Source of the DNA: a virus
Lineage: Duplodnaviria; Caudoviricetes
Virus record (IMG/VR): IMGVR_UViG_3300037067_027684
Location: 182,685 to 246,684 of that record
Length of the DNA stretch: 64,000 nt
Reading direction: 5' to 3' (one strand)
Both the position numbers and the translations under genes were made by a program. This document shows, one piece after another, positions 4,473 to 44,519 of the stretch. Numbering within the stretch: the stretch's first letter is position 1; every line of letters begins with the position of its first letter. The notes under the pieces were generated by a model, which was not told the origin of the DNA, made no database searches, and was given only the letters and a program-made list of their open reading frames with translations.

Positions 4473-5688
4473 GATTTCTTTTGAAATCCACCATGGGCCT
4501 GTAGGTTGAGGGTGTCCATTTGGCGTCGGTAAGCTTGTTTGACTGCAAGAAAATGTCGTTCCATGGCCTCAATCTGTACTCGTAGTTCGCTCATGCTGTC
4601 TTGGTTGAGGTTTTTGATGCCTGGAATCAATCCGTTTTCTAGGGCGTAAAGCTCTAATTCGGCTCGACCAGCTAAATCCAAAATCAGTTTGTCAACGGCT
4701 GGATCACCTTGGCAAGGTTCACTCATTTTCTTTCTCCTTAGTGTCAGATACTCTCGATTGTTCGACTACAGCTTCAACATCTTTCTTTATCTCTTGTAGA
4801 GCTGACATAAAGGCTGCTGTGTCTTCTTCATACGTGGTGTCAGGGGTGCACCATCTAAATTCGATGCCAAGTCTTTTCATTTCTGGGCTAATGTCTTTGG
4901 TGTGTAGGTTGAATATTGTGTTGAATTTGAATTCTGGTCCTGCTTTGGAGTTATAGATGGTTTCTGCTCTGTTAATTAGTTCGAGTAGTTTCTTCATGCA
5001 TCCTCCTTGTTAAACGTCTTGGGCTAGGGCTTCTATTCTTGAGGCTAGGTCTCCTAGTTCGTTGGCTTCTTCCATGAAAGATTGCCAATTATATTTTGGC
5101 TCTTCTCCTTTTAGCTTAGATATTTGGTTTGCTGCTTTCATTGCTGCTATTCGTGCGTTACATTGATCTGCTTGGGTTCTTAGTGCTATGATTTTGCCGA
5201 CGTAGTAATTCATGGGTTACTCACCTCCCAAAGCCGCAATCATCGTGTCTAGAATGTTGCTGTACGCAACACTGGCTCTCCTAGCCTCCGAGAAGAGGGC
5301 AGGCAACATTGAATGCTCTATGTGGTCAATATTTTGACTTCTCTCGTTTCATTCATCGTTTTCTCCTACTTTCCTTACTGGAAACATTTGATCCCATTCT
5401 TAAGGATGTAATCGACCTTCTTGTAAGTCTCCCACAATGTCAAAGCATCACACAACAGTTTCTGGCGAACGTTCGGTGGAATACGTTTAAATGAAGTAAT
5501 TTTCTTGGGCTTAAAATCACCCCATTCTGCGTCTAACTCTTCGAACCACAGGAATTCAGCAATCTTAATAAGCTCTTTCTTGTGGGGGTGTTTGGCCATG
5601 AAGGTTGGACTGGGAGAATAGGTTCGTAGGTCCATTTTTCTGATTGCTTCGGACCAACCTTCAAGCCAATTTTTACAAGCTTTGTTCT

Positions 5689-10538: not shown

Positions 10539-11402
10539 CTAGTATTTCTCGTAGTATTCACAGTATCCCTTATTGCAGGATTGCAACCATTCTGCAAATT
10601 CAGGATCACACTTGGGTAATTTGGTCTTCCAAGCGTTTGCGTAGACATTACCGTAGTGTTGTACGAATTTATTTTCTTGATCCCTAGGTCGTTGCATTTC
10701 GGCGTAGTTAGAGAGGTAGAGCATACAAGGGAATTTGCATAACCAGAATGGGTTGAACCTCACATGGGGGTGAAGGTCGATTGCTTGCAATCTGGTGAGT
10801 AACCCTTCTCTGCCGTCTAGGTGGCATTGGCGGTACCATCTTTGGGCGGGGTAGGGCTTTCCATCAGGGAAATCTCTCATTAGGTCTTGGTATTTCTCGT
10901 CTTCGAAGAAGAGTCCTCCGGAGCAGTGGTCGGCTGCTTGGTAGAGTTCGTTTACTATTTGGTGTTGTTTGTCGCGTGACACTTCTGGCATGTCAGTGAA
11001 GATTTCGAAATTGACTCCTAGGTCGTTGACATGCTTCTCACATAGGGTGTGGGAGGTTATGTGTAGGTAGATGCCTCGTTTTTTGGACCAGTAGAATCGT
11101 TCTTCTTCGTGTTGGATTTTTGGTTCTGCGGTGTAGTTGGGTGAGTAGTCGAAGTTGGCTTGGTAGACTAGTTTGAATCCTAGTAGGGATTCTTCTAGGA
11201 GTTTACAGGCTTCGTCGAAGTCTAGTCCTGATCGGGTGTCGTTTATGTCTTTGAGGAATTGTTGTTTGCGTTGGTTGTGGACTAGGAACATTCCTAGTCC
11301 TAGTCTTTGGGCGTCACTGTTTTGGTCGTGTATGCTGGTGCCTGTGAGTTTTTCGGCTTGGTCTAGGGGGTCGAATCTCATGATTTCATCGAATTGGCTC
11401 AT
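10539..11402 (-). CDS. hypothetical protein
   Basis: Long ORF with an AGGAGG RBS before the ATG at 11402. Confidence 0.7.
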   Translation of the reverse strand: MSQFDEIMRFDPLDQAEKLTGTSIHDQNSDAQRLGLGMFLVHNQRKQQFLKDINDTRSGLDFDEACKLLEESLLGFKLVYQANFDYSPNYTAEPKIQHEEERFYWSKKRGIYLHITSHTLCEKHVNDLGVNFEIFTDMPEVSRDKQHQIVNELYQAADHCSGGLFFEDEKYQDLMRDFPDGKPYPAQRWYRQCHLDGREGLLTRLQAIDLHPHVRFNPFWLCKFPCMLYLSNYAEMQRPRDQENKFVQHYGNVYANAWKTKLPKCDPEFAEWLQSCNKGYCEYYEKY

Positions 11403-11456
11403 GGTGCTCCTCCTGTTAAAGGTCGTATCGTATTGGGGCATTGGGTTAAGTATTTG

Positions 11457-30859: not shown

Positions 30860-31798
30860 TTTGTAATCTCCTGTTTCCACCGTGGAAATGAAATTTATGG
30901 CTTCAAGCCAGCCTTATTCAAAGCTCGTGCGCAGATCAAGGCGAAATTCCGCTTTGCGAATTCAGCCACAAACTTGAAACCTTTCTTATCCTCAAACACA
31001 ATGTCCCACGAGATTGTAGGAGTGCATTTTCCACCAACCTCACAGTTTAGACATCGCTTCACTATGAACTTAGACTTCTTTGACTTAGCCATTTGACCTC
31101 CTAATACGTTGGAATTTCTATGAAACATCCGCTTGGAAGCTTCACCATTCCTCTCCGGTCACCCAACTCCGCCCACCTGTAAGCCTCAGATTCAGACTTC
31201 ACAGCAACCATAGCAATCTTGTCATTCAACAACGTCTGTTCACGATCAAGAACCAAACCCGAATGCCTTAAAGCCTTCTCCATTCCACCAAGACTCCATT
31301 CACCACCAACCTCATCCCATTGAACGCGCATCAGGCACCTCCAAAGTTCCCCGCAATGCACGAGCAAAATCTTCTTGAGTCCAACCACTAGCACGAAGCC
31401 GCTCAACCTCAGCTTCAGCCTCAGCCAGAACTTCAGCCTTGGTTAAAATCTTGCCCCACGGACGCTTGCACCTTGGACAACGCAGGATTCGATCCTTATC
31501 AGAATCAACTTGAACCAAACACCTTGGGCATCTCATTTCATTCTCCTTAGTACTTAGACAAATCGCAAACTTTGATCTCCCTTTGAAACCGTCGATGCTT
31601 GTATCCAGAGAATAAGCAACTGGATCTGACGCAAATCAAATAATCCAAAGCATCTCTGACTTCTAAAGAATCTGGGGCTTCAGATAGAATCTTAATCAAC
31701 TTTTCGCAAATTAGCGTAACTCCGCCACGTCCTTTGCCTCTGCTGCTTAGGAAGCGGTTCATTTTACTGTGTTTCAAGAATATTTCCTCCGTGGAAAC

Positions 31799-31826
31799 AG
31801 GGATACCCCGTTGAGGAGTATCCCTG
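31799..31826 (-). terminator. GC-rich hairpin, probable intrinsic terminator
   Basis: CAGGGATAC...GTATCCCTG inverted repeat downstream of 31861..32181. Confidence 0.5.
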
Positions 31827-31860
31827 CTTATTAATCAGTCAATTTAGAGGTGGGAGCTAC

Positions 31861-32181
31861 TCAGATTTCGTCTAATGCACTGTCCAATTTTGCGTCAAAA
31901 TCAGACGTACTCCATTTCAAAGCTTCAGCAATAGCCTGCGAGGCGGTCAGATCACCACCTTCTGCGTCATTGGGATCTTCAGCGGGCCAGAGTCCGTAAT
32001 AGAAGTTATTTGGTTGCTCTGAAGCTCCACGAAGGACGTAGACCTTCTTAGCTCCTCCTATAACCAGAGCATTCCTGGGTGAAGCATTCAGGTAAGCTTC
32101 CATTTCAGGTAGGCTCTTCTTAACCAGAGGTTGATCAGCCAACACTTCGTCATTCGTTAGGCACACCAATGTCGAATCCAC
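31861..32181 (-). CDS. hypothetical protein directly downstream of twister 1
   Basis: GGAGGTG RBS then GTG at 32181; the track's longer start reads through the ribozyme. Confidence 0.65.
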   Translation of the reverse strand: MDSTLVCLTNDEVLADQPLVKKSLPEMEAYLNASPRNALVIGGAKKVYVLRGASEQPNNFYYGLWPAEDPNDAEGGDLTASQAIAEALKWSTSDFDAKLDSALDEI

Positions 32182-32193
32182 TTTCACCTCCCT

Positions 32194-32267
32194 CAGGACT
32201 TGGGACCTGTCTCTTTCCGGACTGGAAAGAGAGTTCCTTACAGAGGGAATCACCCTCTGCCCTCGGT
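32194..32267 (-). ncRNA. twister ribozyme 1 (P5-type permutation), predicted cleavage 32240/32239
   Basis: cc-GA-GGG-[cagaggg/ccctctg]-UAA-gga-AC-[P3]-CAGG-UCCCAAGU-CCUG; all core elements present. Confidence 0.85.
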
Positions 32268-32759
32268 CTCATCCGGCTCCAACTCACGCTCACGATCAAT
32301 AAGCCTCTGATACAACGGATGAACCTCAGGCTCCACAGAACTAGTCACCGGAACCTTAGTCCCAGACGGAACCTTGCCAGTAAAGTAAAAATTCGGATCG
32401 CCATTCCCAATAAAAGCATCCTCATCCTCAAACGGCAAAGAACCACCAATAGAACTCCGATCAGCACTTGAAAAACCAGTCCACACCCCAATCGAACCAT
32501 CCCTCAACAACAGAACCTCAGACCACTCACCAATATCATTAACAGATTTTGCATTCAAAACCTGCTGAACATCCGCATCTCCCTCACTAAACCCATAATT
32601 CTTCACCATATTCGCAGCCACCAACTTCTTATACAAGGGTAACGCAGCTTCCTCATTGTCAAAAGCAATTGCATAAGGAGATTCATCCATCTCATCAACA
32701 ACCACAAATCGACCACCAGTCATCAGCGCCTCATCCAGTTTCTTGTCAAAATCAGCCAT
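32250..32759 (-). CDS. hypothetical protein; stop codon lies in the P1 loop of twister 1
   Basis: AGGAGGTG RBS before the ATG at 32759. Confidence 0.7.
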   Translation of the reverse strand: MADFDKKLDEALMTGGRFVVVDEMDESPYAIAFDNEEAALPLYKKLVAANMVKNYGFSEGDADVQQVLNAKSVNDIGEWSEVLLLRDGSIGVWTGFSSADRSSIGGSLPFEDEDAFIGNGDPNFYFTGKVPSGTKVPVTSSVEPEVHPLYQRLIDRERELEPDETEGRG

Positions 32760-34619
32760 CCAACACCTCCTCAACATTTATTTTTACTCCTTAAAGTTTC
32801 TTCAACACAGACTCCATGTCGGGCCTCAACGCAGAAGCCACACTAACAAACAATGGCTTCTCACCCTTCAGATGCCTCCCCAGAGTTGTCTGACGAATCG
32901 TGGACTCAAACTTCTTAATAATTTCAGAGAACACCGAATCCAAACCACGCTGAAGCTTGATATTCCTCATCTCAACAATCTTGCTCATGTCCCGTAAGAG
33001 AACCGAAACCAGACAACTCACAGCCACCGTCTCAGTATCAACCCACCCAGACGGAGCCGCAGCAACAAACTCATCAAGAACCTTGGCGTATTCCTTCGAT
33101 TTGCTCTTCTCCTTCAAAGCAGCCATTAATTCAGCGCTCTTCCCTTCCCACAATTTCTTGAGTTCTGCTTCATCCATTATTGTTTCCTTTTAAATTCGCC
33201 GTGGTGCTTAACCCAAATTGCAATGTACCGATCCCGATCAGCTTCAGTCCAACTTGGGTCAGGTCGAGCAAAACGCTCATCAAGGAATGCCCCGACTTCC
33301 CTCAGGTAGGCTAGTGATTTCTCCTTCTCAGCGGTGTGAGCAGGAGAGACTTCTGTGCCGCGACTATTGGTCATTCTTCCTCCTCATCAACTCTGCCAAT
33401 GAACATCATCAAACCCTCAAGGCTAACGATCTTATCGGCCTTGAAAGGCTGATTGAATTCTTCAACATCAGAGTTGACAATATCTCCACGAGCCTCAACC
33501 GCATCAACAAATTCACGAACCTCCTCTTCACTCGATCCTGTAACCCCGAAAACCCAGGGCTGATTCTCCATGTTATGGTAATGAACTCTGACACCCTTAG
33601 CGCAGTTAATCATTTCTCCTCCTTATTACTCTTCCTCATCTTCATCCTCGCCCTCACCATCCGGATCAGGCTCCTGAAAATTCAACGTCAAACGAGTCGG
33701 GTCATCTTCATTTTCATAATCCAAAATCTCCAACCCATCCTTCCGTCCCGCCACAAACTCCTTAACCTTTACCACCTCATCTGGCGTCAAGTTCGATACA
33801 GAAAATAACAATCACCACAAATAAGATCAAAATCATGCTGGGGCATGTACTCTGTATCAACCTTCTCCTTCCCAACCAGCTTCTTCAAATCCCGAAGAAT
33901 CTTAGCTCTCTCAAGCATACTTGTCTCCTCTCATTCGTAGGGGCACCACTGACACGCATTCTTAGCCAAACTCATTCCTTACCTCCTTTCAAACACCGAG
34001 TCGGTCGAATTCTGGAATTTCAACCCACACTGAGAGCAGAACCTCCGCGCCTCAGCACAACTAACAAACGGCAACTTATTCAACCGTTCACCACCCGAAT
34101 CCAACAACCACACGCCATCCTTCTCAGATGAAACCCGCACAACCTCTCCACTCTTCTGAATCAAATCCAAATTGCTCATTCTACTCATTGTACCCCTCCT
34201 TTCACAAAGTTCAATGCGTTGTCATTCATGTTGTTGAAGAATTCATTTATGTCACAACTGGGGATAACAGCCAAATCCTGAACAACCCCTTCACCAGTCA
34301 ACACCCCAACACTCTCACTAACCAATTCCCAACCCAAACAACCACAACCACGACCACCATGAACATCAAAACACTCAGCAACCAATCGACCAGCGCCGAA
34401 ACGAGTCTTCAAAAAATCAACAACCGAAGTATGCTTAGCGGGGCCAAAAACCAAAGCCCAACACCCATTAGGCTGATCACACCCACCAGAACCCTGAAAA
34501 ACAAAGAACCTCTGATTGACATCCAGAACCTTGCTCATCGTACCTAGAGCCTCAGTCTTAAACCAACTAAGTGCCTCTTCTCCAACAAAATTCTTCATCT
34601 TTTTCTTCCCTTTCAATGA

Positions 34620-34937
34620 TTAAGGTTTGGGTTTGGAGACATCGCACGTCTCCTTCAAAATTCGAGCACTCACAACCACGTACTCATCAGCAGGCAAACG
34701 CATCTGTTGGTAAACCCTGGCGAACAAATCCCCAGGTTGAGAATCACGAGCAATCTTCTCACCATCAAGAGTACACTTCAAAATCCCAATCCAATAATCC
34801 CGCGAATCACGTAATGCCTGACAATCCAACGAATTAGGATCACGCTTCACAGCATCGCAAATCCGAAGCGTATAACCAGAAATTCTCTCCTCCAGAGCAA
34901 CAACAAAAGCTTGACGAGCAATCTCGAAAGTTTTCAT
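34620..34937 (-). CDS. hypothetical protein directly downstream of twister 2
   Basis: GGAGG RBS overlapping the end of P4; ATG at 34937. Confidence 0.65.
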   Translation of the reverse strand: MKTFEIARQAFVVALEERISGYTLRICDAVKRDPNSLDCQALRDSRDYWIGILKCTLDGEKIARDSQPGDLFARVYQQMRLPADEYVVVSARILKETCDVSKPKP

Positions 34938-34945
34938 GAAACCTC

Positions 34946-35018
34946 CCTGGACTTGGGACCAGGACCCTTTCCACCGTGGAAGGGTGGCCTTACGGGGAGT
35001 CAACCTCCCCGCCCTCGG
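34946..35018 (-). ncRNA. twister ribozyme 2, predicted cleavage 34992/34991
   Basis: cc-GAGGG-[cggggag/ctccccg]-UAA-ggcc-AC-[P3]-CCUGG-UCCCAAGU-CCAGG. Confidence 0.8.
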
Positions 35019-35330
35019 TTACCGAACAGCATGAATCTCAAACCCCTCAACCGGCACATAAACCTCACGAGTCCTAAAAGACAACGCATGCTGCCACCCA
35101 TCAACATAAGGGACGCAAACATCCTGCTTCTCCAACCTGTGTAGAGCCTCCTTCGCCTCATCGTTATTCTCATCCCGCACTTCAGAACCGAGAACCAACT
35201 CCAAATCAGCAATAACCTCGTTCGCCTCCTCCTGAGTGCCAACAACCACCAAATTGCCGGTGTCAGGCGCATTCCCATCGTAGTCACCGTAAACCGCAAC
35301 CTTCTCCTCACAGACAACCTTCTTACCCAT
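35019..35330 (-). CDS. hypothetical protein ending immediately before twister 2
   Basis: AGGAGGTG RBS; TAA at 35021-35019. Confidence 0.65.
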   Translation of the reverse strand: MGKKVVCEEKVAVYGDYDGNAPDTGNLVVVGTQEEANEVIADLELVLGSEVRDENNDEAKEALHRLEKQDVCVPYVDGWQHALSFRTREVYVPVEGFEIHAVR

Positions 35331-36771
35331 TCAACACCTCCTTGACTTACATCCACTCACTCAACTTAAACCTCGGATCAACCTTCAACGCAGCCTTCAC
35401 AGCCTTAGCTGTCGCTACCCCACTCTTAGACTTCTTCCAAGCAGCCACACTCCCCCACTCACCACCAACCTCCTCCAAATGAGTAGCCTCCGCCTCAGCC
35501 GCATCAGCAAAAAGCTCAGCAACCTCAAGGTGATTCAACTCCTCAAAATGCTCAGCAATAGACGCACAACCATCAGCATGAATCCCAGAACCCTGATGCC
35601 ACCGAGACGCCTTCGCCGCAGCCTCAAAAGCCCTAACAGAAGGTTTCTTCGACTCAGACATTTCACACCTCCTAATCATTATCAGCCAAATACTGCTTAT
35701 TCAGACCCGCCAGAACATTAAGGATGTCAATGTGAAGCACATAAGCCTTCGCCCGATCATCCTTTTCAGGCAAATCCTGCCACTTCTCAAGCATCTTCGC
35801 AATCGAATCCAACTCACGAAATTCAAGAACAATCCTACCAGGATCTGCATCCGCAACGTAAATCTCCAACCTATTCAAGAAACCACGCATAACCTCAGCA
35901 TCATAATGCGACTTAGTACAAGCCCCAATAAGCCGTACATCCTCCCTCGAAAGCAACAATTCCGCCTTGGGAGTCCTGATAATCTTAGTCAGCGTCATTT
36001 GAACCTCCTAATTTTAAGGAACATAACTTTCTTCATTGTACTTCTCCATTTGCATCCTAATCATCAACCGAATAATCTTCTGAGCCTTAGGATCATTCGG
36101 AAAATGCAAAGCACCACTACCCTCACCACTCAACCACCAAAAACTCAACGGAATGCTGTTGACAGTAGTTCCAAGACAAGGCAAATGATCGTCAACCCAA
36201 TAATCAACAACCTTGACCCTAATCATCTCCTTGCCAGCTAAAGCCTTTCGAAGCCTCTCCTGCTCCTTCTCAGTCAACTCATTGAAAAACCGCTTGAATT
36301 TAGTGACCTTCATTACTCCCTCCTGGAAGTTCCAAATCCTCAACAACCTCACCACTCACACCCTTAACCCTCGGACGAGCAGCCATCCACCCACCCATCG
36401 GGTGCGGCTCCAATAGCCCCTGTCTCGCCATATCACATAAGAACTGCCCAACCAATTCACGATCAACCCACTTCTCCAGCCCAAAACCCGAATACTCAGT
36501 CGGAATCTGAGCCAGAAAACCAACCCCACTCCTCGCCCTCTCCAAATCCTCCTTCAACAACTCAGCAACCTGCCTCTTCACCCAAGCACGAGCAGCATTG
36601 TACGCAGGACGTGGGATAACCCCAGTAAACCGCTGCTGATGCAACCTCCGATTCACCCCACCATTCCGAAGTTGAAGCTGAGTCTGCCGAATCCTCAACT
36701 TATGCTCAGCAATCATCGCCTCAGCCTTCTCAGGTGGCAGCATCCTCCGACAAATCCCCTCAAAGTCCATT

Positions 36772-36987
36772 TCAACCTCCCTTCTTCACGTTGACAAACT
36801 TAATCGTAAAATCCTCCCCCTCAGGCAGAGATTCATCAACAATCATTTCAATCTGCCTCGTCAACTGCTTGACAGTCAATGGGGTCTTGCTCGCACCCCA
36901 ATACCACAATCCAACATTCCTCTGACTACTCTTGCCTGGGACCCTCGGTTTCACGAATGAACCAGCTTTGGTAACTATGACTACCAT
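36772..36987 (-). CDS. hypothetical protein downstream of twister 3
   Basis: GGAGG RBS embedded in a TTTCC-N5-GGAAA dyad; ATG at 36987. Confidence 0.6.
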   Translation of the reverse strand: MVVIVTKAGSFVKPRVPGKSSQRNVGLWYWGASKTPLTVKQLTRQIEMIVDESLPEGEDFTIKFVNVKKGG

Positions 36988-37019
36988 CTTATTTCCTCCA
37001 TGGAAAGAGAAAGTATTTT

Positions 37020-37086
37020 CTGGACTTGGGACCAGACCCACTTTCAGTGGGGGCCTTACACCCCAAAGGGGAGGGGTGCCCTCGGC
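37020..37086 (-). ncRNA. twister ribozyme 3, predicted cleavage 37058/37057
   Basis: gcc-GAGGG-[cacccc/ggggtg]-UAA-ggc-..-[P3]-CUGG-UCCCAAGU-CCAG; second pseudoknot partner imperfect. Confidence 0.7.
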
Positions 37087-37304
37087 TAATAACAATAACC
37101 ACCATGACTGTGAATAACATGCACCACCTTAAACCGACCCCCACCAACTTCCTCTTAGAAAAAGAAAGAAGAGGCCCATTCAAACCCAACAAAACCTCAC
37201 GCGGATCGTCACACTTATCAGCCTTATAAAAATCACCAACCCTCAACAACCTCCGAAACCTCCGATCCCTATAACTCCAAACCCCATAAGTCTTCCTCAT
37301 AACT

Positions 37305-37363
37305 CCTCCTTATTCACCACCAACCACACACCTCCTTATTCACCACCAACCACACACCTCCTT
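37305..37363 (-). repeat. 26-bp tandem repeat (about 2.3 copies), each unit an RBS plus a 5-codon ORF
   Basis: Minus strand reads AAGGAGG-tgt-GTG GTT GGT GGT GAA TAA twice. Confidence 0.8.
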
Positions 37364-38582
37364 TAACCCTTCATGCAATCACGACGACGCTTACGCCGCT
37401 CCCTCTTCTTACGCTGCTTACGCGTCATACCTCACCCCTTCTTAGACAACACCATCACCTCAGGCAAACTAAACTCAGGAACAGACACCCCCAACACAAG
37501 AACAGCAGCCCCCACCTCACCCTTCATCGTCAACACAGCAGCCACCCTACCCTTCATCGCCTCAGCACCAGCCCTGAAAGCAACCCGAGCAGCCTCCTTC
37601 AAATCCCCAACCCGAACCTCCACACCCTCCCTCATAGCCTCAAACGCCTCAACCTGCCCCCTCAACTCCGCAATCTCCCTCACCAAAACCTCACGCGAAG
37701 GAGAAACCCCAGCCCCCTCCACCCCCTCAGCCCGCAACACCCCCACCAACCCCTCCAACCCAACCCCCGAATGAGCAACCTCATCAGACCGACCCTCATA
37801 AGACAACTCCCACCTACCATCCCCAAACACAGCAATCTCAAAATCCCCAACAAAACCAGTCACAGGATCAGACTCATTCAAAACAACCAACAACTCACGC
37901 CCCCTCAACCAATCCAAAATCCTAACCCCCTCACACCCAAACTCACTCATCACACACCTCCACTCGCTTCGCTTGTGAAAAGACCAAAACCCCAATTTCC
38001 ACCACGGAAAAGACCAATCCCCTACCCCAAACCACCAACCACATAACAAAACCAACCACTAATCACCGAAATATTCGTACGAACCTCCTCAACCTCCAAA
38101 TCCCGAACCCAACTCAAACAACCAGGCAACTCAACCAACAACCCCAACTCCCCAGCCTCATACAACTTAAACAACTCATCCACATCCTCCACAGTAAGAG
38201 GAGCAGTAGAATAAACAGCAACAACCTCACCATCAGAATTATGAGGATTAACAATAGTCGTAATCGACACCACAGAACTCCTCACATCACCCATTCAACA
38301 CCTCCTCGCTTGTCCTCGCTTCGCTCGGAATTTCCTCCGTGGAAATAGAAACATCTTTCTATCGCCTCAAAACCAATCCCAAATTTAAAACTCTCAAACC
38401 CCGAAATCCCCTCACAAACTCACAGTACTTAGGCTAACCAATTCCCTCAATCCGAGAAATACCCCCTTAGAAATAATTCCTGAAAACCGAGTGGGTTATA
38501 ATTCGAGGTGTTCCACATGGTGATTTCTCATTCCTCACGAAGTATCTCAAAATTAAACTAATGTACTCATTGATACGAAAAG

Positions 38583-38618
38583 CCCCAACCCAGGAATTAT
38601 TTCCCCTGAGTTGGGGTT
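38583..38618. terminator. hairpin in a ~400-bp non-coding gap
   Basis: GCCCCAACCCAGG...CCTGAGTTGGGGT, followed by T residues on the minus strand. Confidence 0.45.
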
Positions 38619-39524
38619 AATTGACTATTAGAGTAGTTCTAGTTGTAGGAGAAACCATTCCAAAATTAATCAACATACACATCGAAAATATCTGATGCTT
38701 GAATCAAACGCTTGTTTGAATCACTCATTTGAAACAAGCACAAATCCCCCCTTTTTTAATCAGCGTTCCCGTCAACAAAGTGAGTAAGCTTAAACCGCCA
38801 AATCACCTCATCAGCAGTTCGGGACCAGAATCGGGGTTCCAGGATAGAATTCCTCACGATTTCGAGTAAATCCCCCTTCGTCCCAACCCACCTGAAATCG
38901 TACTCACCCCAACCAAGAGTGATTTGATTTCCTTCGTGGAAGTCCCTGATCATCTTCTTCATGTCTTCTGATTCTTCGTCCAAATCCAGCTCCAACTCAA
39001 GTGTTTCCTTGGTGAGATCGAGGATCGGACCCATTAGCCCAAGTGAGTTGGCTGGTTGGATGTTGTTGCTTTCTGTGCGGAAGACGAGAAAGAGATCTTC
39101 GCCTCCACGGTCGGTTCCGTGAACTAAGTCGCAGCTTACTTTGATTTTCATTGGCTTCCTCCCTTACTCCGTTTGGTTAGGCGTAGAGGATTGCGCAGAG
39201 TGCACGACCAGAAGCACTAACGATTTGAGACTCCTCGTCATTCCCACGTGTGACTTCAAGGAGATGAACACCACTTTGAGGTGAAGTTAAAAGCCTGACT
39301 GTAGCCTTGTACCTGTCTTTCCTCTCGTCGCCATCATTCCAACATTGGACGGTTGCTACCTTGCCCTTGATTTTCAGGAGTTTGATGTTGAAATCTAACT
39401 CCATTTTGCCGTAACTGTTGGCTCTTTGGATCACTTCTTTGAGGATGTTCATTTGGCTCTCCTTGCTGTCTGTAATCGTTTTCATCTGACCGACTTCGGA
39501 TTCAGATGTGTTTATCAGCTCTTG

Positions 39525-39806
39525 CTATTTGCTGGGGTAGACTGCCTTGCACTTGGTGCAGCGGTAAACCTCAAAAGGATGTTTCTTGATACGGTAAATC
39601 CTCTCACCGCACCTGCAGAGTCCTTTGGGGCGTCTTACCTCAAAGACTTGTTTCAAATCAGGTGGGTCGAGTGGTGGCATCCAGGCGTTGAAGAGTAAGC
39701 TCATGATTGCTTTGCCTTCGGGCATTTTACTTAGGATGACTCGGGCGTCTTTCAGGTCTTCTGGTTTGAAGGTGTTTGTGACATCTTCGATTTTTAGTGG
39801 TTCCAT
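39525..39806 (-). CDS. hypothetical zinc-ribbon protein downstream of twister 4
   Basis: CRCG...CTKC; GGAGGAG RBS directly after P4. Confidence 0.65.
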   Translation of the reverse strand: MEPLKIEDVTNTFKPEDLKDARVILSKMPEGKAIMSLLFNAWMPPLDPPDLKQVFEVRRPKGLCRCGERIYRIKKHPFEVYRCTKCKAVYPSK

Positions 39807-39818
39807 TGGCTCCTCCCT

Positions 39819-39887
39819 CAGGACTTGGGACCTGTGAGCTTAAATGCTCAGTTCCTTACAGAGAGGTTTTAGCCTCTCTGCCCTCGG
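39819..39887 (-). ncRNA. twister ribozyme 4, predicted cleavage 39858/39857
   Basis: cc-GAGGG-[cagagagg/cctctctg]-UAA-gga-AC-[tgagc/gctca]-CAGG-UCCCAAGU-CCUG. Confidence 0.85.
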
Positions 39888-39888
39888 T

Positions 39889-40212
39889 TTACTTTTTGAG
39901 TTGGGCCATTGCAGCTTTGAGGAGTTCCTTCTTGGCGGCTTTCTTCTCAGCCTTCCGCTGGTCACTGCATTTGGTGCAGGTGTCGATTTGGAAGAGGTCG
40001 GAGGTGAAGACCCAGCGGGAGTCGTCGCAGCAGAGTTGGCAGCTGATTTTCACTTTGTACTTGCCTGCGGCTTCATCGAAAGTGAGGGTGTCGCTGAAGG
40101 CGTGGGGGTATTTGTCCAGGTTGGCTTTGATTTTCTCCAACTGGAGGTCCTTCTTGGCTTTGATTTTCTCGGCGAGTGCGAGAATCTCGGGTGTGACTTC
40201 TGTCTGTGGCAT
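39889..40212 (-). CDS. Lys/Ala-rich zinc-ribbon protein, paralogue of 43831..44169
   Basis: CxxC...CxxC; shares EVTPEILA, KYPHA and VFTSDLFQIDTC; AGAGGAG RBS before the ATG at 40212. Confidence 0.75.
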   Translation of the reverse strand: MPQTEVTPEILALAEKIKAKKDLQLEKIKANLDKYPHAFSDTLTFDEAAGKYKVKISCQLCCDDSRWVFTSDLFQIDTCTKCSDQRKAEKKAAKKELLKAAMAQLKK

Positions 40213-40277
40213 GGTCTGTCTCCTCTGCCCCGTTGGGGCGTGTGGGTTTGGGCGGGTTCTCCCGCCTCTCCCGTCCT

Positions 40278-40305
40278 GTGGCGCTCCCTTGGCTCTCTGG
40301 GGAGG
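40278..40305 (-). promoter_or_regulatory. bipartite promoter-like motif, copy upstream of 39889..40212
   Basis: Plus strand GTGGCGCTCC-N7-CTCTGGGGAGG; one of five similar copies. Confidence 0.5.
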
Positions 40306-40529
40306 TGCAATTTGGTTGAAGTGGTGAGTCACCTCCTGTACCCCCGCTTGTTGGTGGCGGTTGGTTGGTATTCTGGGGATGGTTTGAATAGCAAGAGTTG
40401 ATAAATTCAATCAGAGACGATTCCCTACCTTAAGGTTCCTGACAGCAAGGGTTGCTAAATTCCAGCTTGGAAAGGGTATCCCGCTTGGACGTTCACGGAT
40501 ACCCTAGCTTCTCCCCGTTCGGGTGGTGA

Positions 40530-40560
40530 CTGGGAGGAAGAGAAACAACTCTTCCTCCCA
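40530..40560 (-). terminator. perfect hairpin just after the 40566..40937 stop
   Basis: TGGGAGGAAGAG-loop-CTCTTCCTCCCA. Confidence 0.5.
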
Positions 40561-40565
40561 TTATG

Positions 40566-40937
40566 TTAACGAACCAAATAGCGACGGAATTCTTCTGAAA
40601 CTTTCTTTCCGTCAGTTCCGATTGCATCTTCTCTGGTGACTTTCTTTCCGTCAACTCCGATTGACCATCGGTCGGAGCAATCACTTCCTGCGTTCGGAGT
40701 TTGTTTCTTTTGTTCGAAGGCTTTTTGGAAGATTTCGATGGGGTAGACGGCTTCAAGGCACGCCGTTAAATCAAGGCGGTTGAGGAAGTACCAGCTTGCG
40801 TCAACCTCGTCGTACCCGTTGATTTTTCGGGCTTCGTTTTCTTCGGCTGGGAAGTCGAAGATTTTGACGTAGTGTCCGTCCCAGTTGGTTTTGTTGCAGA
40901 TTGCAACGTAGGTTCCTGCTTTGGTGTAGTTGTGCAT
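40566..40937 (-). CDS. hypothetical protein downstream of twister 5
   Basis: GGAGG RBS after P4; C-terminal IGxDGKKV duplication. Confidence 0.6.
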   Translation of the reverse strand: MHNYTKAGTYVAICNKTNWDGHYVKIFDFPAEENEARKINGYDEVDASWYFLNRLDLTACLEAVYPIEIFQKAFEQKKQTPNAGSDCSDRWSIGVDGKKVTREDAIGTDGKKVSEEFRRYLVR

Positions 40938-40948
40938 TGGGCCTCCCT

Positions 40949-41075
40949 CCAGGACTTGGGACCTGGTCGCTTTCCGGTGTGGAAAGCGAGTTCCTTACAA
41001 GGGAGAGGGATGACTTTGGGCACCCATGTGTTGATGGGCTTTGCCGTTAGTTCTTTCGCTCTCCGTTGCCCTCGG
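40949..41075 (-). ncRNA. twister ribozyme 5 with enlarged P1, predicted cleavage 40997/40996
   Basis: cc-GAGGG-[caacggagag...ctctcccttg, ~50-nt loop]-UAA-gga-AC-[tcgctttcc/ggaaagcga]-CCAGG-UCCCAAGU-CCUGG. Confidence 0.75.
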
Positions 41076-41311
41076 GACTTCCTTAATGCGTTTTCACTTT
41101 TCTGCCCTCTGTGCCTCTTTGCTCCTAAACTCACAAAAAGAATTCAAAATGTTTTGGAGTTTACTGAGTGCCCGGTGGTCGTGTCACTTGTTCACCCCTT
41201 TCGGTTTGCTTCGCTTGCTTAATTTGTGGGAATAGGGAGGGGGGCACTGCAGTGCCCCACCAGTGAGGCGAAGCTCCGCCACAAGCGGCCTCTAGCCTCA
41301 ACTAAAAAGGC

Positions 41312-41485
41312 AGACCAGAGAGGGATTCGAACCCTCGTCTCCCCCATCACCCAACCCTCACCTGCAAGTGAGTCTTGAGTGTGGTTTCACAGTTCCACTT
41401 TGGAAGGCCAGGTTGCTTGCAGACATCCTGTTTTCTGTTGGTGGATTTTCCTGTAGGGCGCTCTAGACCACTGAGCTATCCGGCC
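41312..41485 (-). tRNA. tRNA-like RNA with a 107-nt structured insert replacing the anticodon loop; no assignable anticodon, CCA not encoded
   Basis: Acceptor GGCCGGA/TCTGGTC, D-arm GCTC-AGTGGTCTA-GAGC, anticodon stem CCCTA/TGGGG, variable loop GAGAC, T-arm GAGGG-TTCGAAT-CCCTC, discriminator U. Confidence 0.85.
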
Positions 41486-41534
41486 AAAATCTGTGGGGAA
41501 GGCCCGCAATCTGCGTCCCTTCCCCGCTCCGGTC

Positions 41535-41560
41535 GTGGCGCTCCGCTCCGCTTGGGAGGG
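41535..41560 (-). promoter_or_regulatory. bipartite promoter-like motif upstream of the tRNA-like RNA
   Basis: GTGGCGCTCC-N6-CTTGGGAGGG; about 35 nt nearly identical to 44287-44321. Confidence 0.5.
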
Positions 41561-41901
41561 ACGCTCGGGAGCCGTTTCCTTTGCTCGACCTCAAGCCGAT
41601 TCCTCAGCGAGGGAGCGAATCTTAGTGAGCGGCAGAATTCACCTGAGTATTCCCAGGACTGTTGGTCATGAGCCAATGGGGAAAGGCAGCTCTACGACTG
41701 GCTGGCTATTCCATTGACGCCTGAACCCTGCTCACTCCCCCTTCCACCTCTTAATCATCGACCCAGTGCAAATGGGGGTGGTTGGGTGCCCTTCGGGATT
41801 TGCACTCCCGTCAGGTCAAAACGTTAACAGCAAATTCCCAAACTCCGGTTCGGCTTTGATCTTAACCCGCCAGCGCAAGGCGGAGAACTAGCCCGTCAAC
41901 C

Positions 41902-41992
41902 CCAGGATTTGGGACCTGGTCTCGTCCACCAAGATTTCCTCGGTGGAATCGAGCTTCCTTACAGCGGAGAGTAACCTCCCCGCTGCCCTCGG
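41902..41992 (-). ncRNA. twister ribozyme 6 (variant loop UCCCAAAU, possibly attenuated), predicted site 41961/41960
   Basis: cc-GAGGG-[cagcgg../..ccgctg]-UAA-gga-ag-[long P3]-CCAGG-UCCCAAAU-CCUGG. Confidence 0.6.
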
Positions 41993-42057
41993 TAAACACG
42001 ACTTTCAATAGAGGAGCGCACTCCGGCCCCTCGTTCAACCACGATAGTGGCACCCCC

Positions 42058-42318
42058 TCACTTCCCTAGGGAGTCAATAACCCCCAGAATCCGCACCTCG
42101 TGAGCGTTCAACAAATCCAACGCCCCAAGGACGTTCATCATATCGTCCTTCGACGCCGAACAAATGGCATAATTACGAAGGATCTCCCCACCGATCTGCT
42201 CCACAACCCGCCTCTGCCTTGCGGTATTCTCCAGAATCCGGATCTTCATCTTCTCAATGTGTGGGTTCTGGATTACCCGCACTTCTTTCACTGTCTGAGG
42301 AATAGCTTTGACTAGCAT
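42058..42318 (-). CDS. hypothetical protein between twisters 7 and 6
   Basis: GGAGG RBS directly after P4 of twister 7. Confidence 0.65.
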   Translation of the reverse strand: MLVKAIPQTVKEVRVIQNPHIEKMKIRILENTARQRRVVEQIGGEILRNYAICSASKDDMMNVLGALDLLNAHEVRILGVIDSLGK

Positions 42319-42329
42319 GTAACCTCCCT

Positions 42330-42404
42330 CCAGGACTTGGGACCTGGACCTTTCCGGAGTGGAAAGGTGTTCCTTACACCCCTGATTTTAAGGGGTGCCC
42401 TCGG
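42330..42404 (-). ncRNA. twister ribozyme 7, predicted cleavage 42376/42375
   Basis: cc-GAGGG-[cacccct/aggggtg]-UAA-gga-AC-[acctttcc/ggaaaggt]-CCAGG-UCCCAAGU-CCUGG. Confidence 0.85.
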
Positions 42405-42756
42405 GATTCATGAAATCAACCTTCCACTTCAGAACCTTCTGGTGACCGTCGAACTCGTCGGTGTACTTGAAGACCCACGTCTTCTGTCTCAACATGAAAT
42501 CCTTGAGGAAAATGAGCGTCCCCTTGAAATCCCTGTTGGTGTGGCAGCTCCTGCCTGCGCCGAAGTGGATGAAGGCGTAGTCACCTTGGACGACGGTGTT
42601 TTGGCTGAGGAACCACCATGCGAAGTAGCCTTGGTTGTCTTTTGGTGCTGTTTTCAAGTCTTTCACTGTGGCCAGCAGGTTTTGGAGTGCTGGGATGTTG
42701 AGGATTGACTTGTGGAATGGGACAACTCCATTCCTGATTTCGATGCAGTTACTCAC
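42388..42756 (-). CDS. hypothetical protein; stop codon lies in the P1 loop of twister 7
   Basis: GAGG RBS; TAA at 42390-42388. Confidence 0.65.
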   Translation of the reverse strand: MSNCIEIRNGVVPFHKSILNIPALQNLLATVKDLKTAPKDNQGYFAWWFLSQNTVVQGDYAFIHFGAGRSCHTNRDFKGTLIFLKDFMLRQKTWVFKYTDEFDGHQKVLKWKVDFMNPEGTP

Positions 42757-42774
42757 TGCGTTTCCTCCCTGGAA

Positions 42775-43017
42775 CTAGGGGATTGTCACTAGTTCCGTGT
42801 GGAACTTCGAATTGCCGCCACCGATTCCCTCCCTCACGCGAAGGATTTGGGTTGGTGTTGCGCAATTCTTGCAGGTTGTTAACCCCAATTCCAGACGTTC
42901 GGTTGGGATTACCTCTCCACAAGTGCAGACTCGTCCTTCCCGTTTGAGTTGGATGAGTTTTTGCAGCTCGTCCAGCTCTTTGGGTGAGAGTCCTGCGAGG
43001 ATCTTTCTTATCTCCAC
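42775..43017 (-). CDS. TraR/DksA C4-type zinc-finger protein
   Basis: CTCGEVIPTERLELGLTTCKNC matches C..CGE.IP..RL....C..C. Confidence 0.65.
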   Translation of the reverse strand: MEIRKILAGLSPKELDELQKLIQLKREGRVCTCGEVIPTERLELGLTTCKNCATPTQILRVREGIGGGNSKFHTELVTIP

Positions 43018-43030
43018 TTCTCACCTCCCT

Positions 43031-43108
43031 CCAGGACTTGAGACCTGGTTACTTTCCGGAGTGGAAAGTAGTTCCTTAAGAGGGGAAAGGAATCCCCTCC
43101 CTCTCGGA
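43031..43108 (-). ncRNA. twister ribozyme 8, predicted cleavage 43078/43077
   Basis: tcc-GA-GAG-[P1]-UAA-gga-AC-[P3]-CCAGG-UCUCAAGU-CCUGG; the pseudoknot covaries (CUC/GAG instead of CCC/GGG). Confidence 0.9.
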
Positions 43109-43110
43109 CT

Positions 43111-43245
43111 TCACCGATTCCCGTCAGACTCCTGCATCCGCTCACGAATCCGATCCTTGATCTCCTGACGGGTTGGGCCGTGAGATCGGTGCTTCGACCT
43201 CCCACGAATCCTCAACCCCTCACGCAACGCATCTGCTCTGCTCAC
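43111..43245 (-). CDS. 44-aa Arg-rich small protein ending just before twister 8
   Basis: AAGGAG RBS, GTG start, MSRADALREGLRIRGRSKHRSHGPTRQEIKDRIRERMQESDGNR; not in the track. Confidence 0.5.
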   Translation of the reverse strand: MSRADALREGLRIRGRSKHRSHGPTRQEIKDRIRERMQESDGNR

Positions 43246-43271
43246 GTTCTGCTCCTTTTCCAAGGTGGAAA

Positions 43272-43562
43272 TCAACTCCTGCCAGCCGAATCCCTCACTT
43301 CCCCATCAGCGTACCGAACACAAAAATGCAAAAGCTTGTAGACGTGCATGTTCCCCTCGCCATCCAAGCGAGCAACCTTGATCCCCTCAACACCAGGAAC
43401 ACGAAACCAGAACATCCGGAGATCGTGAAACACGTACTCCGTCTCCTTCTCGTTCAGCGGAATGAACGCCGCCAAACGATCCGTGTGAAACATCTCACAC
43501 AGAGCCTTTTCCACATCCTTCGTGGTAAGGTGTGTTGCAATCGTCACAGCAACTGGGACCAT
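43272..43562 (-). CDS. hypothetical protein downstream of twister 9
   Basis: GGAGGTG RBS directly after P4. Confidence 0.65.
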   Translation of the reverse strand: MVPVAVTIATHLTTKDVEKALCEMFHTDRLAAFIPLNEKETEYVFHDLRMFWFRVPGVEGIKVARLDGEGNMHVYKLLHFCVRYADGEVRDSAGRS

Positions 43563-43575
43563 CGAACACCTCCCT

Positions 43576-43650
43576 CCAGGACTTGGGACCTGGCCCCTTT
43601 CCTCAGTGGAAAGAGGGGTCTTAAGCAGGGACGGAACCCTGCTCCCTCGA
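43576..43650 (-). ncRNA. twister ribozyme 9, predicted cleavage 43623/43622
   Basis: tc-GAGGG-[agcaggg/ccctgct]-UAA-ga-..-[P3]-CCAGG-UCCCAAGU-CCUGG; P2 covaries (tc/ga versus cc/gg). Confidence 0.8.
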
Positions 43651-43790
43651 ACAGCTTAGTGTCGAACAGCTAACTACCGCATGGCTCAACCCTCAATTGC
43701 CTTGCTTCGCTCGTCTAAGAAAGCCTCCAAGCGAATGCCGAGCTAAACCCCTCTTCAAGCGAATGTTGAGGCTTTCCACCCTGGAAACAG

Positions 43791-43826
43791 AAAGAGGGAA
43801 AGGAGGCCGATCCCCCTTTCCCTCTT
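43791..43826 (-). terminator. intrinsic terminator after 43831..44169
   Basis: AAGAGGGAAAGG...CCTTTCCCTCTT followed by TCTGTTTCC. Confidence 0.6.
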
Positions 43827-43830
43827 GGTC

Positions 43831-44169
43831 TTACTCAGCCGCCTTGTCCGCAGCGATCTTGGCCATCGCCGCCTTGATCAGCTCCTTCTTCACCGCCTGC
43901 TTCTCCTTCTTCGCCTCGCCCGCGCAGTCCACGCAGGTGTCGATCTGGAAGAGGTCGCTCGTGAACACACGGCGCGTCTTGCCGCACTTCGTGCACTCGA
44001 TCTCGACCGAGTACTTCTTGGCCTCGGGGTTGTACGTCAAGGTGTCCGCCTTGGCGTGCGGGTACTTGCTCAGACCTTCGCGGGTCTTGGCAAGCTTCGC
44101 ATCCTGCTTGGCCTGCAGCTTCTTGGCCATCGCGAGGATTTCCGGCGTGACTTCCACTTCGTTTGCCAT
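43831..44169 (-). CDS. Lys/Ala-rich zinc-ribbon protein, first gene of the leftward array, with GC-rich codons
   Basis: CTKC...CVDC; paralogue of 39889..40212; AGAGGAG RBS. Confidence 0.8.
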   Translation of the reverse strand: MANEVEVTPEILAMAKKLQAKQDAKLAKTREGLSKYPHAKADTLTYNPEAKKYSVEIECTKCGKTRRVFTSDLFQIDTCVDCAGEAKKEKQAVKKELIKAAMAKIAADKAAE

Positions 44170-44234: not shown

Positions 44235-44406
44235 GTGGCGGCTCCTGCCGCTCTGGGGGAGGCCCGCTGCCCGCTCGTGCGGTGCCCTGCGTCCTTCCCC
44301 GCTCCGGTCGTGGCGCTCCGCCCCGCTTTGGGGGAGGCGCGCTGCTTCCGTCGCGTGTGTCCTTCTCCTGCGCTCAGGTTGTGGCGCTCCGGTCCCCTCT
44401 GGGGGA
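44235..44406 (-). promoter_or_regulatory. three tandem copies of the bipartite promoter-like motif
   Basis: GTGGCG(G)CTCC-N5/6-CT(C/T)TGGGGGA at 44235, 44310 and 44381. Confidence 0.55.
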
Positions 44407-44519
44407 CATCCTCCAAAGAGCGCGGGGATGCCACAAGATAGGGATTGTACCCCCGTAGAAGTATGGCGGGGAGGGGGAGGGGACCAAGGGGGAGGGGGGT
44501 CGGCCCTCCTTTCAGCGAG

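Follow-up and report, generated by a model that had tools for sequence, protein, structure and literature searches.

A palindrome of fixed spacing between the early genes of a jumbo phage, often carried in twister ribozymes, is probably a protein-binding site

A short palindrome, TTTCC-N5-GGAAA, occurs in 23 perfect copies in the 247-kb genome of a jumbo phage, where about 0.3 would be expected, and is probably (at a probability of roughly 0.7, judged from sequence) a site at which double-stranded DNA is bound by a dimeric protein of two-fold symmetry, itself probably encoded by the phage. The phages bearing this dyad are a group of uncultured giant bacterial viruses, in which it lies between early (first-expressed) genes and is likely to be bound by protein. 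Twelve of the perfect copies, together with five near-perfect ones of one mismatch each, are crowded into an early-gene cluster of the window, the 64,000-nucleotide stretch that was analysed, and the remaining 11 are scattered across the next 115 kb, such that dyads recur about every 11 kb over half of the genome. An earlier note on this DNA had noticed none outside a 13-kb segment, which does not hold: perfect copies were found at 5370-5384 of the window (at a stop codon, with a ribosome-binding site, RBS, just after), at 10858-10872 (within the ORF 10539-11441) and at nine further places at genome 98341-174943. In a whole-record search the other 117 kb (genome 1-98 kb and 227-247 kb) contained zero perfect sites, and the distribution is far from uniform.

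The 12 cluster copies were confirmed at every start that had been given for them, against 0.18 perfect copies per window in shuffles. The array, read along the transcribed minus strand, opens at 43773-43787, immediately behind a 15-bp hairpin (43792-43826) which in turn comes after the stop codon of a zinc-ribbon gene; at the equivalent position relatives carry an intact twister with a dyad, and this phage only the hairpin. Five perfect copies, as previously recognised, form the P3 tips of twister ribozymes, namely 43598-43612 (twister 43577-43651), 43053-43067 (43032-43108), 42351-42365 (42331-42405), 40971-40985 (40950-41076) and 32214-32228 (32194-32267). The solo perfect copies are located at 43257-43271 and 30874-30888, each with a stop codon on one side and an RBS on the other, at 38331-38345 in a gene leader, at 37996-38010 in intergenic DNA, at 36992-37006 overlapping an RBS, and at 31783-31797 overlapping the 3' arm of a preceding P1-like hairpin. 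Four near-perfect copies listed before are real: those at 41935-41949 and 34968-34982 (in P3 of twisters 41903-41993 and 34947-35019) and the solo copy at 40459-40473, preceded by a hairpin, have one mismatch, and that at 41392-41406, CTTCCAAAGTGGAAC on the minus strand, has two and lies within the ~100-nt insert at the anticodon loop of a tRNA-like RNA (41312-41485, minus strand). That list had missed two one-mismatch copies, a solo one overlapping an RBS at 42761-42775 and another within the ORF 38756-39151 at 38928-38942.

The spacing proved as rigid as had been claimed, since genome-wide a spacer of 5 nt gives 23 matches and all other spacers from 0 to 12 together give one (a spacer of 2). 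The spacer ends in T in 11 of the 12 perfect cluster copies, bearing out the earlier "nearly always"; this corresponds to an A at position 6 (A6) on the transcribed minus strand, and the extended half-site reads TTTCCA[C/G]. Most of the 23 perfect and 5 near sites are intergenic, many in short gaps, and in the cluster a dyad turns up at gene junctions every 200-500 bp, in many cases next to an RBS. The dispersed copies are separated by gaps of 4-20 kb and are spaced more regularly than random (CV 0.47, P=0.008 in a post-hoc test); one intergenic gap harbors an inverted pair of identical dyads (genome 102639/102682). Five dispersed dyads are inside coding sequence, about 12-fold above the 0.4 expected from synonymous shuffles. 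Outside the cluster no one-mismatch dyad was observed where 8 were expected, and this depletion is also present within the marked half of the genome; the depletion of two-mismatch dyads is not extreme when set against arbitrary dyads. Avoidance of a short restriction-like core was ruled out, as neither CC-N5-GG nor TCC-N5-GGA is depleted. The distances within close pairs (21, 38, 43, 43, 49 and 66 bp) are too sparse for helical phasing to be read from them.

Nine RNAs of the cluster (32194-43651, minus strand) match Rfam family RF02684 and are, from their sequence, type-P5 twister ribozymes predicted to self-cleave; the gathering score is reached by four of them, with the other five below it, and the core motifs (GAGGG, P1, UAA, P2 and the P4 loop) are present in all nine. 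Seven have the dyad in P3, five in perfect and two in near-perfect form, and those at 39819-39888 and 37020-37086 have none. Most run straight into a GGAGG RBS, which gives a cassette in the order hairpin, twister cut, dyad, P4 and RBS. This cassette is clearly duplicated, and near its junctions strain contigs differ by gene swaps. It is retained in about 20 related contigs, where, as in the phage itself, the spacer stays at 5 nt; since the motif itself served to select the metagenome set, some of the dyad's invariance is built in, and the spacer is also constantly 5 nt in loci retrieved by protein rather than by motif. Relatives included, P3 carries the dyad in 52 of 65 twisters, and predictions usually show it fully paired there; in five relatives it is found at the tip of P1, on the upstream side of the cut. 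Among the relatives G001-G005 (52-62% identical in a core protein, where measured) no perfect dyad was found, and G006 has one; a twister RNA search in five relatives, run without a positive control, gave no match, and their strongest "dyads" are tandem or collagen-like repeats. Twister-pattern scans of viral_contigs were likewise without a match. In genome_contigs none of 33 dyad matches stood in a twister context and they look like chance, therefore no host or prophage was found; Cas3-based inference indicated no host either.

The double-stranded-DNA reading is favoured because the dyad shows no covariation, the dispersed sites are blind to direction and five of them lie in genes, for many sites no folding is predicted, and near-sites are rarer than expected. 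Across 57 P3 stems, 69 double changes and 5-6 pair types were counted at the basal pairs; four dyad pairs are invariant, and the outer dyad pair departs by mismatch only. Single-pair variants among 102 perfect sites comprise 19 that break the pair, one that is compensatory and no wobble, and the spacer, or loop, takes 58 different sequences at constant length. When examined as a protein-binding RNA hairpin of the boxB, CsrA-site, ANTAR or Csy4 type, the dyad displayed neither a conserved loop nor a covarying stem. A6 lies with transcription in five and against it in four of the dispersed, independently arisen sites, and in the early clusters it favours the transcribed strand (28 versus 9, p=0.003; 20 versus 8 for unique spacers, p=0.036). 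Such a strand bias is predicted by an RNA element, and could also be produced by cassette copying and RBS overlap.

The earlier note had offered a dimeric DNA site or an RNA hairpin tag, and it is the former that is better supported. An RNA tag, in which a 5-bp stem with a 5-nt loop is bound by a protein on processed mRNAs and sets their stability or translation, appears unlikely. After twister cleavage most fragments would begin with this hairpin 20-35 nt ahead of the RBS, and the proposal draws on the paired P3 copies, on the A6 bias in clusters and on the solo dyad that stands 14 nt downstream of the dyad-less twister 37020-37086. Stems of 5 bp capped by a pentaloop are indeed recognised by some proteins, for example Csy4/Cas6f. 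Against it, the stem is fixed while the loop is free, the dispersed copies are orientation-free and partly coding, the P1-tip copies of the five relatives precede the cut, and the hairpin on its own is worth just about -3 kcal/mol, with predictions often leaving it unfolded outside P3. Either strand of a palindrome is able to fold; most P3-tip dyads are predicted folded, and many solo dyads have a near-zero predicted hairpin probability in context.

If the dyad is read as DNA, a stoperator-like transcription roadblock across the early/middle half is the best mechanism, put forward tentatively and at less than even odds. The bound protein would block or slow the elongating RNA polymerase, as has been proposed for L5 stoperators, a step that takes about half of the weight of the DNA reading. 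Thirteen promoter-like boxes, CTCCC-N16-YGCCAY, occur at genome 103.6-227 kb, in the same half as the dyads (~98-227 kb). Three in tandem, of the form CTCCC-N16-YGCCAC, head the cluster (44381-44407, 44310-44336 and 44235-44261, minus strand), another, CTCCC-N16-TGCCAC, is at 42047-42073, and two (40354-40380 and 40278-40304) precede a second zinc-ribbon gene, all on the minus strand. No dyad overlaps a box; dyads lie downstream of boxes, the nearest at 138 bp, and are densest behind the tandem ones. Sigma-70-like promoter matches in 29-46 kb are at chance level. The first gene of the cluster encodes a zinc ribbon of the FTSDLFQ family (43831-44169, minus strand), and a zinc-ribbon gene precedes every dyad array; in five dyad-array loci no dyad was found upstream of it, with up to 9.5 kb inspected. 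The dense array may then turn the early cluster down or off and still leave its first gene readable, and the dispersed sites may extend the roadblock over the early/middle half. The lack of box overlap, the dyad-free DNA upstream of the zinc ribbon, the density behind boxes and the short intergenic gaps, as in L5, argue for a roadblock. Depletion of near-sites in the marked half, which pure silencing does not require, counts against it, as does the palindromic form of the dyads, L5 stoperators being asymmetric and directional. Roadblock-assisted termination at adjacent hairpins was dropped on geometry, the dyad beginning no more than about 5 nt from the hairpin.

The dyad most likely rides harmlessly in the ribozyme hairpin tips. 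The tips of P3 and P1 probably house it because they offer non-coding space to spare in a packed cluster, where a palindrome folds without disturbing the ribozyme, and because the hairpin-ribozyme-RBS cassette, presumably copied between gene junctions, would carry it along. A coupling of ribozymes to one regulator, as the earlier note had suggested, is unsupported with respect to catalysis: the palindrome at 43773 has no twister, its place shifts between P3 and P1, and 16 of the 28 genome sites with at most one mismatch are not in a twister, several being in coding sequence and none being tied to a twister by the tests run.

The zinc ribbon is a candidate dyad binder on circumstantial grounds. 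Its paralogue in the cluster (39889-40212, minus strand) is 56% identical, homologues are present also in dyad-less phages, and in the tree the dyad-bearing copies cluster, within a mostly unresolved topology that cannot show co-evolution. Zinc-ribbon fold searches gave no clear PDB match, and none of the protein searches identified a dyad-binding protein. An HTH_3 gene (genome 100115-100414) has no dyad in its promoter or nearby and only two homologues. Searches of the record, which is 91% complete, turned up no tyrosine integrase, serine recombinase or S24/CI-type peptidase, so nothing points to lysogeny despite the "provirus" label that IMG/VR gives it.

Among the other proposals, an architectural DNA site comes next, a possible but doubtful one. 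It would set the early/middle half apart as a domain so that the DNA could be anchored, compacted, segregated or taken in stepwise, and the dense cluster would serve as a loading zone close to what may be a genome end. The even spacing of the dispersed dyads, their freedom of orientation, their frequent location in genes and their restriction to one 128-kb half are consistent with it. The NBS sites of Noc are dispersed over part of a replicon. Precedents are provided by the Noc site, ATTTCC-CG-GGAAAT, whose half-site is identical (PMC7383237), and by matS, a 13-bp target with 23 copies inside a single 800-kb domain (PMC3330122). Gene control is a better fit to the junctional density beside RBSs, the spacer is 5 nt rather than 2, the 91% complete record yielded no ParB_N, HTH_ParB or ParA, and assembled contigs continue unbroken across window 44.5 kb.

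It is improbable that the dyad acts positively as DNA, by loading an activator or processivity factor that serves the CTCCC-N16-YGCCAY promoters or by working as its enhancer. The shared interval (dyads 98-226 kb, boxes 103.6-227 kb), the inverted dyad pair, which precedes by about 1 kb the tandem boxes opening a rightward block, the one clear and one weak sigma-70-type protein encoded by the phage, and an even spacing suited to reloading speak for it; the dyad-box distance, however, varies from 138 bp to 7 kb, and mid-gene dyads are unusual for activators. A sigma-54 enhancer was rejected for this phage (4 sites versus 0-4 in controls). Slightly more improbable is a dual role, in which a phage protein of uncharacterised family, possibly the FTSDLFQ zinc ribbon, would read the palindrome both in DNA, over half of the genome, and in the nascent-RNA P3 hairpin, so that elongation or domain organisation would be linked to the processing of early mRNAs by protein-gated ribozymes. 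Least likely of all is a host-regulator site or a neutral passenger of cassette duplication, since the clear duplication of the cassette, the gene swaps near junctions and the single dyad near the zinc-ribbon genes of an apparently smaller, different phage (L056) are set against solo and in-gene dyads sharing no flanks with the cassette, the in-gene excess, the depleted near-sites and the 20 of 20 inspected matches within ORFs, with no sign of a regulon, in 121 genomes of a Pirellulales MAG's phylum, the only phylum sampled.

The dyad-bearing twister arrays would represent a second, sequence-level code, conserved in about 20 related contigs, over half of a jumbo-phage genome. Being short and defined, the dyad could be used as bait to find a new phage regulator or genome organiser, and the arrays offer a natural test of whether ribozyme cassettes act as mobile operator carriers. 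A roadblock, if true, would extend stoperator-type control beyond mycobacteriophages and to a palindromic site; an architectural role would amount to domain marking in a phage, for which we know of no example.

The operators and stoperators of L5 and cluster A phages likewise comprise more than 20 short sites spread over the genome, many of them away from promoters in the short gaps between genes, and have been proposed to halt elongation (PMC9283540). Each of those is an asymmetric 13-mer that points along transcription and is recognised by the monomeric repressor of a temperate phage (PMC9283540), whereas the present site is a 15-bp palindrome, embedded in ribozymes, orientation-free when dispersed and mildly biased in clusters only; some L5 sites overlap early promoters, unlike the dyads and the putative promoter boxes here, and no repressor or integrase was identified in the phage. 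The NBS core of the Noc and ParB/parS family has the same TTTCC/GGAAA half-sites around a 2-bp CG centre (PMC7383237), in place of the 5-nt phage spacer, and its ParB_N, HTH_ParB and ParA partners were not found. With MatP/matS the phage shares a short site, 23 repeats, and confinement to and spread through one genome domain; the sequence is unrelated, and the phage dyad is six-fold denser, has a junction cluster and stands in a phage setting. The PeSL cassettes of T4-type phages, a sigma-70-like promoter with a terminator stem-loop, resemble the present ones as repeated small regulatory cassettes at junctions of a variable, small-gene-rich region with gene shuffling (PMC2839356), and differ in that the unit here is a ribozyme cassette. 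What self-cleaving ribozymes do biologically in bacteria and phages has been described as largely elusive, and polycistronic mRNA processing has been suggested for type-P5 twisters (PMC6765202). In the literature searched, no description was found of an invariant palindrome in twister P3, of twister arrays ending directly in an RBS or of the dyad motif itself, nor anything relevant on phage polycistronic twisters or jumbo-phage palindromes. The phage RNAs match the RF02684 twisters in family and in gene-junction location, and are set apart by the invariant palindrome in their optional P3 stem.

No other dyad in the genome of this phage is as strong as the palindrome TTTCC-N5-GGAAA, which has 23 perfect copies against 0.26 expected; spacers of 0-12 other than 5 together yield a single match. 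The twelve perfect copies counted in the window by the earlier note, where 0.18 are expected, were all confirmed in place, while its statement that none was noticed outside their 13-kb stretch proved wrong, 11 of the 23 being found between genome positions 98,341 and 193,542. The whole-genome count revealed no perfect dyad in 1-98 kb or 227-247 kb. Five one-mismatch copies exist, every one in the cluster; outside it, none is present against 7.5-8 expected, and the depletion of two-mismatch sites is only suggestive. The dispersed sites outside the cluster of small genes at window 29-44.4 kb are separated by gaps of 4-20 kb, which a post hoc test found to be more even than random (P=0.008), and five lie in coding sequence compared with 0.4 from synonymous shuffles. 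This spacing might be expected of a domain marker or an entry aid, a rather doubtful alternative. A search of the 91% complete record found no ParB, ParA, integrase, recombinase or S24 peptidase.

The window is the final 64 kb of a 246,684-bp IMG/VR virus record labelled "provirus". Among the genes of this jumbo phage, from landfill and groundwater metagenomes, are those for a tail protein and an NAD-dependent ligase; it also has a type I-E-like CRISPR-Cas locus (genome 46545-54000, segment L003) with Cas3 and an array of about ten repeats and 32-nt spacers. A CUA-anticodon tRNA is located at genome 301-374 (segment L001), as one is in the distant relative G001, and long ORFs use all three stop codons.

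A metagenome scan yielded about 20 related contigs bearing twister arrays with the dyad, in which N5 accounts for 93 matches versus 4 for all other spacers, in a set selected with the motif itself. For that reason, further loci were fetched via homologues of the zinc ribbon encoded by the first gene of the cluster, and these hold N5 throughout, with nine perfect sites in the near-twin L053, whose contig is 250 kb long, seven in L146, four in L147 and two in L148. Three members of the family at a greater distance (G001, G003 and G005) lack the dyad, so the system is limited to a clade. Within it the dyad, whose conservation, spacing and layout are directly observed, is a real, selected and clade-wide element. 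In a different phage with an SU10-type capsid gene, a stretch of under 3 kb (L056:9927-12580) combines a single perfect dyad with two homologues of the zinc ribbon and four sigma-54-like TGGCAY-N5-TTGC sites.

Nine type-P5 twister ribozymes lie in the cluster, seven of which carry the dyad in stem P3; a tenth, at genome ~161910-161970 (segment L009), is located outside it and has no dyad. Among the twisters of this phage and its relatives, where P3 lacks the dyad its tip is unrelated in sequence, and in five such twisters, all from relatives, the dyad is placed at the P1 tip instead. Four relatives possess an intact twister with dyad 3' of the first zinc-ribbon gene, and at this place a hairpin with dyad is all that is present in the phage and its twin, which we read as a decayed ribozyme that retained the dyad, implying that the latter is independent of catalysis. 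A tRNA body at window 41312-41485, conserved in L053, harbors at its anticodon loop an insert of ~100 nt with a two-mismatch dyad. The function of twisters in phages is an open question (PMC6765202). Genes near the cassette junctions (window 31899-32182, 34188-34652, 36780-37709 and 38748-39177) are missing or replaced in strain contigs, in a manner like PeSL shuffling.

Each of the three basal pairs in 57 P3 stems occurs as 5-6 pair types, and these pairs show 69 double changes, demonstrating that the P3 RNA helix is real. In the same stems the four inner dyad pairs are invariant and the outer one deviates by mismatch only, and the single-pair variants among 102 perfect sites comprise no wobble, one compensatory and 19 pair-breaking changes. 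The spacer takes 58 forms, with roughly symmetric preferences for A at position 6, T at 10, and G or C at 7 and 9. The dyad is probably read as DNA, since five dispersed sites are oriented with transcription and four against it, identical dyads occupy one 82-bp gap as an inverted pair, sites occur inside genes, one-mismatch sites are lacking, and for many sites outside twisters no fold is predicted. An RNA tag is unlikely, though it would account for the preference of A6 in clusters for the transcribed strand (p=0.003; p=0.036 for unique spacers), and processed fragments would mostly start with one dyad hairpin. Within genome 102044-102710 (L006:2044-2710), the inverted pair just mentioned, its copies spaced by 43 bp and kept in the twin phage, precedes a gene with an HxK...GSxN PLD-like signature and a weak PLDc_2 match (E=0.019).

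Small minus-strand genes with strong RBSs stand in a row at window 29-44.4 kb, and their size, their density and the promoter-like boxes at the head suggest an early cluster. The box CTCCC-N16-YGCCAY, which may be a promoter recognised by a phage or alternative sigma factor, is present in 13 copies, other spacings giving 0-2. All are oriented with transcription, the plus-strand copies falling at genome 103.6-132 kb (103603-131997) and the minus-strand copies at 167-227 kb (genome 166859 and 177426; window 40278-40380, 42047-42073 and 44235-44407). Two sigma-70-type genes, one of them weak, are located at genome 77071-78771 and 133732-135654. Boxes and dyads share one genome interval and never overlap; three tandem boxes stand at the cluster head, dyads start only past the first gene, and in five dyad-array loci the sequence upstream of the zinc-ribbon gene is free of them. 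What we infer beyond a DNA reading is a protein and a roadblock: in the likeliest mechanism, with a probability of a little under 0.4, a putative dimeric protein would bind the dyads in DNA and block transcription elongation, damping the early/middle half, most strongly just behind the tandem boxes, and the ribozyme cassette would be the carrier of the dyad, not its target. A positive loading site is quite improbable.

Elsewhere in the cluster, same-strand neighbours are extremely G/T-rich versus A/C-rich in coding sequence (window 33800-38300 versus 39700-40900), and a 21-residue Arg/Lys-rich minigene (37363-37428, minus strand) encodes a second basic peptide besides that at 43111-43275. In runs X2, X3 and X5, contig depth at window ~35.5-44.3 kb is above that of the flanks (10.7 vs 6.1-6.8 in X2), and base skew reverses near 44.4 kb. 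This hints weakly at a terminal repeat, though a mixture of strains could account for it just as well.

A candidate for the binding partner of the proposed roadblock, the zinc ribbon (window 43831-44169, minus strand; CxxC...CxxC, FTSDLFQ; 661 clusters) is encoded 5' of the array in every locus retaining the array head, and its predicted structure resembles the treble-clef domains DUF723/CapR/DUF4379 (TM 0.5-0.6); homologues are present in dyad-less phages as well. The sole HTH_3 gene in the genome, at 100115-100414, has a promoter without the dyad. That the dyad is a host site or passenger is hardly probable, a sample of one bacterial phylum having given no sign of a host regulon with it.

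No description of the element was found in the literature. The L5 stoperators (PMC9283540) offer the nearest likeness in working mode, but they are defined by asymmetry and promoter overlap, neither of which the dyad displays, and it is therefore not classed with them. The Noc site (PMC7383237) has the half-sites in common with the dyad but differs in spacer and protein, while the distribution of the dyad recalls the domain-limited spread of matS (PMC3330122), and the ribozyme cassette recalls PeSLs (PMC2839356). The dyad probably represents a novel variant of phage control exerted at many sites, with a putative partner and function, in which a probable DNA site unusually overlaps a catalytic RNA.
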